A stretch of DNA of 28,808 nucleotides, from NCBI RefSeq assembly GCF_003334315.1, contig NZ_QOWR01000061.1. One strand, written 5' to 3'. This DNA is from Escherichia coli (lineage in GTDB: Bacteria > Pseudomonadota > Gammaproteobacteria > Enterobacterales > Enterobacteriaceae). The notes beneath the pieces are model-generated. The model saw nothing but the letters and a program-made list of their open reading frames with translations, searched no databases and was not told where the DNA came from. The translations under genes were made by a program, and so were the position numbers. This document shows positions 10,528 through 13,511 of this stretch, piece after piece (positions within the stretch are counted from its first letter, which is position 1; every line of letters starts with the position of its first letter).

Positions 10528-11517
10528 CTACTCTTCTTCGTTCCCGCCCTCTTCATACGGGCCAAATGGCTTCGCGGGCAGAACGATATACGTGCCTTCA
10601 AACACTGCACCCGGCGTCTCGTCGCCAAAGATTTCGACCTGCATCTGCACCCGTGCTTTTCGTCCGCGCGCCAGACGGTCGAGATCGCCGCTTAAGGCAC
10701 CGAGGTCGGCTACCGCATGAGGTTTACCGCTAATCGGCTTGCTGTAGCGGATATGCGCATCCGCAAGAATAATCGTTCCGCCGAGGTGGCGTTCACGCAG
10801 CATCAGCCAGATAAGTCCCCAACCGGTGAGCGTCGCCAGTGAGAATAAACTCCCGGCAAACAGCGTATGGTGCGGATTCTGATTGCCGGTTTCTGGCATG
10901 GTAGTGATAAATTTTTGCCCGGTATATTGCTGAATGCGCACGCCCATTTTTTCACTAAGCGGGATATGTTCGTACCACGCCTGTTGCAGCTGCGCGCACC
11001 AGTCGCCGCGATGCAGAATGTCATCCAGAGTGGCGACGGGCTTAATCATCAAAAAATGGCGAATCGGCGTGGTGGTTGGCGTGGTGATTTCTCCCTGATT
11101 AACAAACCCCAGCTTGGCGAAAAACTCCACCGCGTCTTCACGGGCGCTACAGGTCACGCGCTTAACGCCTTCCTGACGCGCCACCGACTCCAGGGTCATC
11201 GCCATCAGCGTGCCTAACCCTTTGTCCTGCACGTCGGGATGAACGGCCATAAAGCGAATGGACGCTTCATTGTCGGCATTAATATACAGTCGGCCTACCG
11301 CCACCAGATTACCCTGCTCGTCGACGACCATCTGGTGATGCGCCATCGCATCCCACGCGTCGCGTTCCGAACCTTTTGGTTGATGCAGGGGCTTACGCAA
11401 CATTTCCCAGCGAAACTGATAGTAACGCTCTAATTCTTCTTCTGTTTGTGGAACCCGAAGGTGATACATAGCGATACTCTCTCTTGTTTCCCGTGACAAC
11501 CCTGGAAGCTGGCTCAT
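10528..11517 (-). CDS. yiiD: Bifunctional GNAT acetyltransferase / hotdog thioesterase-domain protein YiiD (FabY)
   Basis: 329-aa ORF; N-terminal GNAT-like region and C-terminal thioesterase-like region; 4-bp overlap with dtd. Confidence 0.85.
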
Positions 11518-11951
11518 ACCTGCAACCAGAATGTCACGGGGCCATCATTGACCAGCGATACCTGCATATCCGCAGCGAAGCGTCCTGTTTGCGTGTTCAT
11601 CTCTTGCTGACGGCAGCGTTCGACGAAATAGTCATATAACGCCTCTGCGCGATCCGGTGATGCACCTTTGGAGAAACTTGGGCGCATCCCCCGTTCGGTA
11701 TCTGCGGCGAGGGTAAACTGGGAAACCACCAGCACACTGCCGCCCGCCTGTTGCACGTTGAGATTCATCTTGCCTTCGGCATCGCTAAAGATGCGGTAGC
11801 CGAGCACACGCTCGCACAGACGGTTTGCTTTCTGTTCGTCGTCATCCTTTTCGACACCCAATAACACCAAAAGTCCCGCGCCAATTTCGCCCGTCACTTC
11901 TCCCTCCACGGTGACGCTGGCACGGGTTACGCGTTGAATTAATGCAATCAT
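11514..11951 (-). CDS. dtd: D-aminoacyl-tRNA deacylase
   Basis: 145-aa ORF with the characteristic SQFTL motif and GxGxxG-like N-terminus; overlaps yihY stop and yiiD start. Confidence 0.9.
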
Positions 11952-12820
11952 GGTTCGTCGTCTTCTTCTTGTTCAGCTGCTTGTTTTAGTTTGCGGTATT
12001 CCCCGAGAGTGACAGTAATTTCCGCGCCAAGCAAGACGATACACCATGTCCAGTAGACCCAAACAAAGAGAATGGGGATCACCGCCAACACGCCGTAAAT
12101 GAGCTGATATGACGGAAACATGGTGATATAAAGCGCGAAACCTTTCTTTCCTGCTTCGAACAGGAGCGCGGCGACAAACGCGCCGACAATCGCGTCGCGG
12201 TTAGGTACGCGGATGGTAGGAACAATGCTGTACAGCAACCAGAAGGAGATCCACGACAACAGCAGCGGAAAAATACGCAGCACGTTATCGATGACAGTAT
12301 TGAGATCGCTCGCCCAGCGCAGGGAGAGCAAATAGGAACTGATCGCCAGACTGGCCCCTGCCAGCAGCGGCCCCAGCGTTAAAATCATCCAGTACACGGC
12401 GAACGAGTAAATTTTTGGTCGCGCTCGTTTACTGCGCCAGATGGTATTCAACGCGCTATCGATGGAGTACATCAGCAATAACGCGGTGACGATCAGCCCG
12501 CACGCCCCAACGGCGGTCATCTTGTTGGAATTGGCAACAAATTGTTCGATATACCGCTGAATAACATCGCCAGTAGCAGGCAGAAAGTTGGCAAAAATAA
12601 AGTGACGTAACTGAATGCTGACGTCGGAAAACATGGGAAAAGCGGCGAAAAGCGCAAAAACAACGGCAACCAGCGGCACTAATGAGAGCAACGACACATA
12701 GGCAAGGTTACCTGCCAGGGTTGTCATGTTGTCCTCATCAATGCGTTGCCAGAGTAGTTTTAGCCAGGCCCATAGTGGACGGGTACGGTGCCTGGCTTTG
12801 TCCTGAATGGTTTTTAGCAT
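11948..12820 (-). CDS. yihY: YihY/BrkB-family inner membrane protein
   Basis: 290-aa polytopic membrane protein, acidic C-terminal tail; overlapping start/stop with neighbours. Confidence 0.85.
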
Positions 12821-13413
12821 AACACCTTCGCGAAATAGTCCGGGATGGTGGTTTTATCTTTCACCAGAATACTGGTAATGCCCAGCTGATTAGCTCCTTC
12901 TATATTATCGGCGTTATCGTCGAAAAAGACCGTATCGCTGGGTGAAAAACCTTCCGCCTGCAAAACATGCTGGTAAATTCGTGCTTCAGGTTTGCGCATC
13001 CCCAGATCTTGCGACAGATAGATATGGTCAGCAGCATCACGAATTTCCGGGTATTCTTCCGGCCAGAAGGTGGTATGCAGGCGGTTGGTATTGGAAAGCA
13101 CCACCACGCGATGCCCCTGCTCACGCAGTTTATGCATGATGGCGATCACTTCCGGGCGCAGCGCAACAAACACCGCCTGCCAGCCGTGAGAGAACTGCTC
13201 GTAGCTTAGCGGTAGAGCCATCTCATGACACAGCGCCTCTGCGAACGCTTCGTCGCTAATTTCCCCACGCTCATGCTGATGAAACGCCTCCCCCATATGA
13301 AAACTCTTCTTAAGCGATGCCAGCGGAATACGCGTTAAATCGCTCCAGGCTCCCAGCACACGGTTAAAGTCGATATCGACAATCACATTACCTAAATCAA
13401 AGATATAGAGCAT
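12814..13413 (-). CDS. yihX: HAD-superfamily alpha-D-glucose-1-phosphate phosphatase YihX
   Basis: ORF 12814..13434; HAD motif I ([12 protein letters not shown]). Start probably the internal ATG at 13413 (MLYIFDLG...). Confidence 0.8.
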
Positions 13414-13511
13414 TTTTGCCTCCTTTCGCGCCACAAGAAATTAACTGTAGCGGGAAAGGATGGGTTTGGCTATGTGGCAAGGTATGAAGCCAGGTCAACG
13501 GTCACAAAAAT

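Follow-up and report, generated by a model that had tools for sequence, protein, structure and literature searches.

The yihX-yihY-dtd-fabY operon of Escherichia coli: two overlapping junctions and a likely 44-nt spacer ahead of fabY

Four genes on the minus strand of the window, the 28,808-nt stretch of E. coli DNA analysed here, namely yihX, yihY, dtd and yiiD (now fabY/madA), form an ordinary and already known operon, whose gene order and overlaps are found in the standard E. coli annotation. The best explanation of the locus, to which we give a probability of about 0.8, is a housekeeping operon of E. coli put together piece by piece from unrelated genes. The initial annotation had described a tight chain of four overlapping genes. 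The overlaps at yihX/yihY (7 nt) and yihY/dtd (4 nt) stand, and the one at dtd/yiiD depends on the start codon chosen; the chain most likely breaks at dtd/fabY, where a 44-nt spacer carries its own ribosome-binding motif. The gene identities, the junction geometry, the conservation and the start-codon analysis were obtained in this work, and co-transcription was taken from the literature.

Genes and transcription of the operon

The locus lies on the E. coli chromosome, and its 3.2-kb stretch was matched in 5426 of 5426 complete genomes, with 100% identity in several. It has the same position, genes, order and strand as the catalogued K-12 operon yihXY-dtd-yiiD (b3885-b3888), and the DNA is without difference; what differs is our reading of the fabY start of the MG1655 record, which is argued below to be 48 nt too far upstream.

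The product of yihX (12814..13413, 199 aa) is an alpha-D-glucose-1-phosphate phosphatase of the HAD family, which matched the equivalog model NF006991 (glucose-1-phosphatase) over residues 1-199 of 199 with 405.8 bits against a cut-off of 295. The gene begins at ATG 13413 in both records; the right end at 13434 that had been proposed for the chain is only the GTG of the longest open reading frame. YihY (11948..12820, 290 aa), an inner-membrane protein of the YihY/BrkB family (PF03631), is a member of NF002457 (477.1 bits, cut-off 307, residues 2-289). The model TIGR00765, 'yihY_not_rbn', also matches it, and PF03631 is present in its relatives. Dtd (11514..11951, 145 aa), a D-aminoacyl-tRNA deacylase, is a member of TIGR00256 (256.5 bits, cut-off 101.5), and the SQFTL and NDGPVT motifs were seen in the alignment. 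FabY (yiiD, madA; 10528..11469 with the PGAP start, 313 aa) has the MadA/FabY domain architecture, with GNAT matches and a malonyl-ACP decarboxylase hot-dog domain (YiiD_C). The model of this C-terminal YiiD domain, TIGR02447, was matched with 164.3 bits (cut-off 97.1), and residues 169-314 match PDB 1t82 (E 2.8e-30). Malonyl-ACP decarboxylase activity of E. coli FabY/MadA has been reported (PMC8666670). The four products thus score above the cut-offs of their curated NCBIfam models. The four genes had been named correctly, and their functions are, as far as known, unrelated.

The operon yihXY-dtd-yiiD appears in the list analysed by PMC4421995. In the SMRT-Cappable-seq context table (PMC6131387), yihX and yihY are each found in one context and dtd and fabY in two, and the neighbours csqR and yiiE do not appear in it. 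This difference in counts implies an internal start upstream of dtd. Read indirectly, the context counts imply a four-gene transcript and a second dtd-fabY transcript, which would start inside yihY. The operon listing and the context counts support a single transcription unit of the four genes, for which the initial annotation had suggested operon mapping as a check. The initial annotation had set independent internal promoters against its chain of genes; the same counts point to one such start, upstream of dtd, and they fit the four-gene transcript as well.

Transcription through all four genes would most likely begin at a weak conserved promoter just upstream of yihX. A candidate sigma-70-type promoter was found at 13444..13472 on the minus strand, with a TAGCCA -35-like element (13467..13472), a 17-nt spacer and a TACAGT -10-like element (13444..13449). 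It matches only 8 of the 12 consensus positions and was hence unlisted by the consensus scan, and a transcription start site was not seen for it; both points count against the promoter. The block TAGYCAAA...CTTTCCCGCTACAGTTA has been kept across about 30 genera of Enterobacteriaceae, though the upstream sequence and gene differ, and we infer a promoter role for this block upstream of yihX. Consensus scans for promoters and terminators gave no minus-strand match inside the operon. An internal promoter was also sought via synonymous-site conservation, in which a mild dip within yihY (12040..11996) was not significant after about 730 windows. Beyond the fabY stop, at a distance of 6 nt, a GC-rich hairpin (10498..10521, minus strand) folds with a 10-bp stem and a 4-nt loop in the minimum-energy structure and is a putative terminator; it is without the canonical U tract, so that it was unlisted by the terminator scan, and other genera do not share its sequence. 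Rfam and tRNA scans gave no match within the operon.

The fabY start codon

The letters ATGA are present at the dtd/yiiD junction (11514..11517). In the MG1655 record fabY starts in this ATGA (11517) and encodes 329 aa, and UniProt P0ADQ2 likewise has 329 aa. The PGAP annotation of identical DNA already uses a start 48 nt downstream of that in the MG1655 record, ATG 11467..11469, which gives 313 aa and a 44-nt spacer at 11470..11513.

The two starts were compared across 72 loci. The ATG of MYHLRVP (11469) is universal (72/72). A purine-rich motif, AAGAGAGAG (11477..11485), lies 7-8 nt ahead of it here and recurs in all 72 loci in variants (GAGAGA, AGGGG, GGAGA). The calculated duplex with the 16S 3' end is -5.1 kcal/mol for fabY at 11469 and -3.4 for fabY at 11517. 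The first 15 codons from 11469 show low synonymous diversity (0.332), as does the yihX start (0.306). The peptide of the 16-codon extension is unconserved across the 72 loci, and codon positions 1/2/3 vary by 0.21/0.28/0.34 in the spacer, as compared with 0.05/0.06/0.34 just past ATG 11469.

If fabY started at the ATG of the ATGA (11517), all three junctions would overlap and the four genes would be chained. We consider this quite improbable, even though the 329-aa form is the one in MG1655 and UniProt, and 34 of the 72 loci combine an open frame with an ATG at -4, with three length changes among them that are multiples of three. Other indels in the dtd-fabY spacer are not multiples of three, and the spacer is out of frame or stop-containing in 27 of the 72 loci, whereas MYHLRVP and the purine motif upstream of it are universal. 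Moreover, a start codon before TGA arises automatically from three of the four valine codons, the diversity over the codon positions of the extension is flat, and the short form is the one picked by PGAP. In the 329-aa numbering, residue 19 is the first of the GNAT fold (PMC8666670), which also speaks for the shorter protein.

The 16-codon extension was rejected as a real coupled start, since it is without coding constraint and its frame is broken in so many loci. From this lack of coding constraint, dtd and fabY are most likely 44 nt apart rather than overlapping, and the start at 11517 in the MG1655 record and UniProt is probably 16 codons too early. FabY would then be translated independently from ATG 11469, 44 nt after dtd, with the conserved purine-rich motif as its own ribosome-binding site. 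The start at 11517 may still be used to some extent in E. coli, as the frame from the ATGA to ATG 11469 is open in 45 of the 72 loci.

Overlapping junctions and translational coupling

At the yihX/yihY junction, which reads GTGTTATGCTAAAAACC on the minus strand, the yihY ATG (12818..12820) and the yihX TAA (12814..12816) share the 7-nt sequence ATGCTAA (12814..12820). At the yihY/dtd junction, GAACCATGATT on the same strand, the yihY stop and the dtd start overlap in the 4-nt ATGA at 11948..11951. The distances of -7 and -4 fall inside the range of -8 to +6 nt, and dtd/fabY at +44 falls outside it. This range holds 707 of the 2,987 co-directional pairs of E. coli (24%), and -4 is the commonest distance (PMC10666635). 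The 27 kb around the locus contain about 15 co-directional pairs, of which 5 overlap, fdoH/fdoI and fdoI/fdhE among them. The overlaps here are thus not more than the chance expectation for E. coli.

Among the listed loci, the yihX/yihY distance in Enterobacteriaceae is mostly -7, the remaining loci having -4, -1 or a gap of a few nt, and a gap of 48-174 nt was found in Serratia, Tatumella, Hafnia and Edwardsiella. The yihY/dtd distance is -4 in 33/35 Enterobacteriaceae, 10/11 Erwiniaceae, 3/4 Yersiniaceae and 2/3 Photobacterium among these loci, and also in Vibrio sp. SS-MA-C1-2 and two metagenomic loci.

The duplex with the 16S 3' end was calculated as -11.6 kcal/mol for yihX, -3.9 for yihY and -1.9 for dtd, the in-operon median being -2.8. 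The conserved Shine-Dalgarno sequence of yihX, AAGGAGG (13419..13425, minus strand, 5 nt before ATG 13413), forms a stronger duplex than any 20-nt window within the operon, and it would drive the translation of yihX. No Shine-Dalgarno match was found for dtd in Enterobacteriaceae; the median duplex of dtd was -1.9 in the 35 Enterobacteriaceae. It was -6.0 for the 20 loci from other families in which the two genes overlap, and -5.6 for loci that lack yihY. Synonymous diversity, whose mean is 0.456, reaches its minimum within the operon at dtd codons 2-15 (11948..11904), with a value of 0.216 (0 of 20,000 resamples).

From the two short distances and the dtd start devoid of a Shine-Dalgarno match, translational coupling from yihX to yihY and from yihY to dtd is plausible by analogy with other gene pairs. 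Ribosomes finishing yihX would restart 7 nt back at the yihY ATG, and those finishing yihY would restart at the dtd ATG within the ATGA. Because dtd in Enterobacteriaceae is without its own ribosome-binding site, its output would be tied to the translation of yihY. The closest likenesses are hyfH-hyfI, menD-menH, ydbH-ynbE and astD-astB (Huber et al. 2019, 2023), which are co-directional with a 4-nt stop/start overlap as in yihY/dtd, so that the second gene begins within the coding sequence of the first. Those are pairs in which coupling was measured, and the literature search turned up no experiment on the translation of the present operon; yihX/yihY differs from them by its 7-nt overlap, and dtd/fabY at +44 nt lies beyond the observed coupling range. 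At a distance of 38 nt, reinitiation in three E. coli pairs was reduced by 80-90% in two and abolished in the third (PMC10666635). Two observations count against coupling at this locus. The yihY start has a weak ribosome-binding match, and overlaps of 7 nt like its own are rarer than distances of -4 or -1. With the internal dtd-fabY transcript, part of dtd expression would also be independent of full yihY translation.

The overlaps may instead be neutral by-products of start and stop drift, without regulatory meaning, with each cistron initiating alone. Every dtd gene compared starts with ATG-AT(T/C/A) (Met-Ile), because of which ATGA stands at every dtd start, whatever lies upstream, and one of the upstream frames always offers a TGA. 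YihY ends in a tail of low complexity and variable length, as expected if the stop had drifted to this TGA. The shifting of the yihX/yihY distance within one family and the existence of the internal transcript fit drift as well, and bioBF, one of the five E. coli pairs with a 4-nt overlap tested, was uncoupled (PMC6728339). However, translation was coupled in the other four of those five pairs (PMC6728339), the yihY/dtd distance of -4 is kept from Vibrio to Escherichia despite changing flanking codons, and independent initiation at a dtd start without a recognisable ribosome-binding site would be inefficient. We therefore regard drift alone as unlikely and prefer coupling at the two overlapping junctions.

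Conservation of the yihY-dtd adjacency and the function of YihY

The first protein search with YihY listed matches only from Enterobacteriaceae. An alignment of 30 diverse YihY relatives was without a conserved stretch, and Dtd was used for the genome scan instead; the 80 most similar loci covered Enterobacterales, Gilliamella and Photobacterium. For deeper taxa, 11 YihY cluster representatives were used, nine of which were informative (of the other two, one lies on a contig that stops directly behind yihY and one was without DNA).

Adjacent yihY and dtd genes, in most cases overlapping by 4 nt, also occur in Erwiniaceae, Yersiniaceae, Hafniaceae, Orbaceae and Vibrionaceae, and the co-conservation suggested by the initial annotation thus extends outside Enterobacteriaceae. 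Among the listed loci with readable upstream sequence, yihY is cleanly missing between yihX and dtd in 10/10 Morganellaceae and 4/4 Pectobacteriaceae, where dtd mostly has its own Shine-Dalgarno sequence. Five of the nine informative YihY relatives (40-52% identity) do not adjoin dtd. The order typA-yihY-dtd-fabY without yihX was found in Vibrio sp. SS-MA-C1-2 and Photobacterium. The pairing is old but dispensable, and it therefore says little about the function of YihY. As for the order of events that we infer, yihY-dtd would be the old core in the Vibrionales/Orbales/Enterobacterales part of Gammaproteobacteria, with fabY downstream of it in Vibrionaceae and Enterobacterales; yihX would have joined upstream in Enterobacterales, and Morganellaceae and Pectobacteriaceae would later have lost yihY from this place.

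The proposal that the coupling of dtd and yihY is a lead to YihY function was weakened by these absences, and gene order is at most a weak hint. The AlphaFold2 model of YihY is all-helical with a mean pLDDT of 87.3, and a fold search with this confident model gave no significant match to solved structures; weak, non-significant matches include CysZ (6d79) and UCP1 (8hbv). YihY shares the membrane family PF03631 with YhjD and BrkB. It weakly matches the YhjD model TIGR00766 (E 7.4e-10, below the cut-off), but has an equivalog model of its own, which it matches. Links have been drawn between YhjD and lipid IVA export and between BrkB and serum resistance, and neither protein is known to be linked to dtd. 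The CysZ sulfate permease and SLC25 carriers, helical inner-membrane proteins like YihY, were proposed as its structural relatives in a 2026 preprint (10.64898/2026.03.31.715626).

A genuine partnership of YihY and Dtd, functional or physical, in which for example YihY transports D-amino acids released by Dtd, or Dtd is made beside YihY at the membrane in fixed proportion, appears improbable to us. It would agree with the adjacency within +30 nt in all listed loci that have yihY here (Enterobacteriaceae, Erwiniaceae, Yersiniaceae, Hafniaceae, Orbaceae and Vibrionaceae), with an overlap retained while the YihY C-terminal tail varies freely, and with a dtd that in Enterobacteriaceae has no ribosome-binding site of its own. 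However, yihY has gone from the locus in two families, which speaks against an obligatory partnership, the five more distant relatives lie away from dtd, and the fold search gave no functional hint. Dtd is also known to be far more widespread than YihY. Complex subunits are 4.5-fold enriched among short-distance E. coli pairs, but about 70% (69.6%) of such pairs encode no interacting proteins or complex (PMC10666635). Our literature search found no paper linking YihY with Dtd and no report of their physical interaction. More doubtful still is a true functional pair throughout Vibrionales, Orbales and Enterobacterales, in which YihY would be a small-molecule transporter removing or importing the D-amino acids whose mischarging Dtd corrects, dtd translation would be slaved to that of yihY to keep the two proportionate at the membrane, and the losses in Morganellaceae and Pectobacteriaceae would mark lineages that replaced the function. 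We prefer the piecemeal housekeeping operon.

The locus itself matters little, as few features of bacterial genomes are commoner than overlaps of this kind. The probably too-early start of FabY/MadA would affect the residue numbering in recent biochemical papers. As dtd in Enterobacteriaceae lacks a Shine-Dalgarno sequence, constructs or deletions that upset the translation of yihY may lower the amount of Dtd, and caution is needed when yihY mutants are phenotyped.

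Gene content and junctions of the operon

All 5426 complete genomes of E. coli in the collection contain the 3.2 kb around these genes, several of them at 100% identity. The genes, four in number, run in tandem on the minus strand, and each product scored above the cut-off of a curated family model: YihX, a glucose-1-phosphatase (NF006991); YihY, a BrkB-family inner-membrane protein (NF002457, also TIGR00765 'yihY_not_rbn'); Dtd, a D-aminoacyl-tRNA deacylase (TIGR00256); and YiiD, presently named FabY or MadA, with a GNAT domain and a YiiD_C hot-dog domain. The hot-dog domain of FabY/MadA is a malonyl-ACP decarboxylase (PMC8666670). 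The locus is an operon already catalogued, and its overlaps are ordinary; yihXY-dtd-yiiD appears in a list of analysed operons (PMC4421995).

The initial annotation described a chain of three start/stop overlaps. Two of them are real: the yihX/yihY junction, GTGTTATGCTAAAAACC on the minus strand, overlaps by 7 nt (12814..12820), and the yihY/dtd junction, GAACCATGATT on the same strand, contains ATGA at 11948..11951. The dtd/fabY overlap, on the other hand, is likely an annotation artefact. The right end had been placed at 13434, which is merely the GTG of the longest ORF, whereas both annotations start yihX at ATG 13413. This ATG has AAGGAGG five bases upstream, and the YihX family model then spans residues 1-199 of 199.

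Of the 2,987 co-directional gene pairs of E. coli, 707 (24%) have a spacing between -8 and +6 nt, the commonest distance being -4 (PMC10666635), and about 15% of co-directional pairs overlap in most prokaryotic groups (PMC6728339). The feature is common in the window, too: of some 15 co-directional pairs in the 27 kb surrounding the locus, 5 overlap, among them fdoH/fdoI and fdoI/fdhE. These two are 4-nt overlaps on the plus strand, at about 7106..7109 and 7738..7741 in the annotation of an identical strain. Every dtd in the compared loci begins with ATG-AT, so that ATGA occurs at each dtd start. The overlaps here are no more than chance. Elsewhere on the plus strand, a SECIS_3 selenocysteine insertion element (3726..3784, 80.6 bits) lies, as would be expected, within the gene for the alpha subunit of formate dehydrogenase.

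The start codon of fabY

Whether dtd and fabY overlap depends on the choice of the fabY start. The MG1655 record places it inside ATGA 11514..11517, giving 329 aa (window 10528..11517, or NC_000913.3 4077449..4078438; also 329 aa in UniProt), and the NCBI pipeline (PGAP), on identical DNA, uses ATG 11469, for a product of 313 aa and a spacer of 44 nt. The four genes were located in the 80 most similar dtd loci from named genomes and in several from metagenomes. All 72 loci containing fabY had the ATG of MYHLRVP (MFRLITP in Photobacterium), with a purine-rich motif, AAGAGAGAG or a variant of it, 7-13 nt upstream. Between the dtd stop and this ATG lay 18 to 150 nt (median 44), a stretch that was out of frame or contained a stop in 27 loci. 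Where the frame was open, the extension peptide was unconserved except for the part spelling the purine motif. A fabY start codon at -4 arises almost by default, because the dtd reading frame closes with Val-TGA, and all but one of the four valine codons then yield ATG, GTG or TTG.

Nucleotide diversity was compared by codon position (1/2/3) in the 25 loci that have both ATGA and a 44-nt spacer: it was 0.21/0.28/0.34 in the extension, 0.05/0.06/0.34 just past the MYHLRVP ATG and 0.04/0.00/0.37 at the dtd end. Synonymous diversity was reduced in the first 15 codons from 11469 (0.332; 0.306 at the yihX start, against an operon mean of 0.456). The GNAT fold has been mapped from residue 19 in the 329-aa numbering (PMC8666670). 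On the side of the longer form, the extension frame was open in 45/72 loci versus an estimated 15% or so for a random spacer of such length; genome relatedness and purine-rich composition may be the cause of this excess. From these comparisons, we put at about 0.9 the probability that 11469 is the true start, which would make the third overlap an annotation artefact.

Conservation of the yihY-dtd pair

Adjacency outside Enterobacteriaceae was looked for and found. yihY was directly upstream of dtd in 35/35 Enterobacteriaceae loci (-4 nt in 33), 11/11 Erwiniaceae (-4 in 10), 4/4 Yersiniaceae (-4 in 3), 3/3 Hafniaceae (gaps of 9-15 nt), 6/6 Gilliamella of the Orbaceae (gaps of 7-30 nt) and 3/3 Photobacterium (-4 or 0). 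Vibrio sp. SS-MA-C1-2 has the order glnA, typA, yihY, dtd (-4), fabY, without yihX, which was seen only in Enterobacterales among the loci compared. The pair was found in 0/10 Morganellaceae (Providencia, Photorhabdus, Morganella, Moellerella), where dtd follows yihX at 32-189 nt, and in 0/4 Pectobacteriaceae (Dickeya, Pectobacterium), where it follows at 7-64 nt. yihY is precisely missing between the two genes in these families (loci L047, L049-L052, L055, L058, L061-L063, L070, L073, L076, L083, L084), and a recognisable Shine-Dalgarno site is mostly present at dtd. fabY was downstream of dtd in all groups compared except Gilliamella and Edwardsiella. Nine YihY cluster representatives at 40-52% identity were informative: dtd came next in four but not in the other five, which include a Chromatiales protein and a long form bearing an additional C-terminal domain. 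This survey of gene order indicates that the pair is long-standing in one part of Gammaproteobacteria, yet neither universal nor indispensable.

The adjacency had been proposed as a lead on YihY function. It is conserved, but the lead is weak, with yihY gone from the locus in two families and five of nine relatives not beside dtd; no literature link between YihY and Dtd was found. A 2026 preprint (10.64898/2026.03.31.715626) describes YihY as a protein of unknown function and suggests for it a fold resembling CysZ and SLC25; AlphaFold2 gave a confident model (pLDDT 87.3). Relatives of YihY at 40-48% identity (P0126, P0130, P0134 and many others) are mostly 400-450 aa long and carry an additional domain of about 130 aa at the C-terminus (NCBIfam NF003256). 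The long form with readable downstream context (locus L008) is not beside dtd, and the contig of locus L004 stops just past yihY. A single ENA record (P0004) is a 434-aa YihY-Dtd fusion with both Pfam domains, most likely explained by a frameshift or single-base error where the two genes overlap at ATGA.

Transcription and translation of the operon

SMRT-Cappable-seq in both media gave one transcriptional context each for yihX and yihY and two each for dtd and fabY; the neighbours csqR and yiiE are absent from the table (PMC6131387, Supplementary Data 4). These counts are most simply explained by one transcript of all four genes and a dtd-fabY transcript beginning inside yihY (11948..12820), where a scan found no consensus promoter. 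Directly upstream of yihX, about 60 nt (13414..13472, minus strand) is kept in about 30 Enterobacteriaceae genera despite a differing upstream gene. This block, TAGCCA-N17-TACAGT followed by the Shine-Dalgarno sequence AAGGAGG, is probably the operon promoter, judging from its conservation; it scores under the threshold of the consensus scan. A GC-rich hairpin 3' of the fabY stop has no U tract and is unconserved. The fabY-yiiE gap (9703..10527, 825 nt) has a short pseudogene fragment (about 10052..10168) as its sole annotation, and a promoter-like match on the minus strand (10253..10226).

Duplex energies with the 16S 3' end were -11.6 kcal/mol for yihX, -3.9 for yihY, -1.9 for dtd and -5.1 for fabY at 11469, the baseline being the median of windows inside the operon (-2.8). 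The E. coli dtd value is typical, as the Enterobacteriaceae median is -1.9 (n=35); the median was -6.0 in other families with the overlap and -5.6 where yihY is absent. Nowhere in the operon is synonymous variation more constrained than at the dtd 5' end (0.216; 0 of 20,000 resamples). Experimentally, coupling was seen in four of the five tested E. coli pairs that overlap by 4 nt (PMC6728339), and a 38-nt distance reduced reinitiation by 80-90% in two of three tested pairs and abolished it in the third (PMC10666635). The duplex energies and this precedent suggest that translation is most likely coupled from yihX through yihY to dtd, and that fabY would be initiated independently.

Mutations in yihY may thus have polar effects on the translation of dtd, and call for caution. 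FabY/MadA in the K-12 record is likely over-extended by 16 codons, and the residue numbering of recent MadA/YiiD papers is probably shifted by 16.
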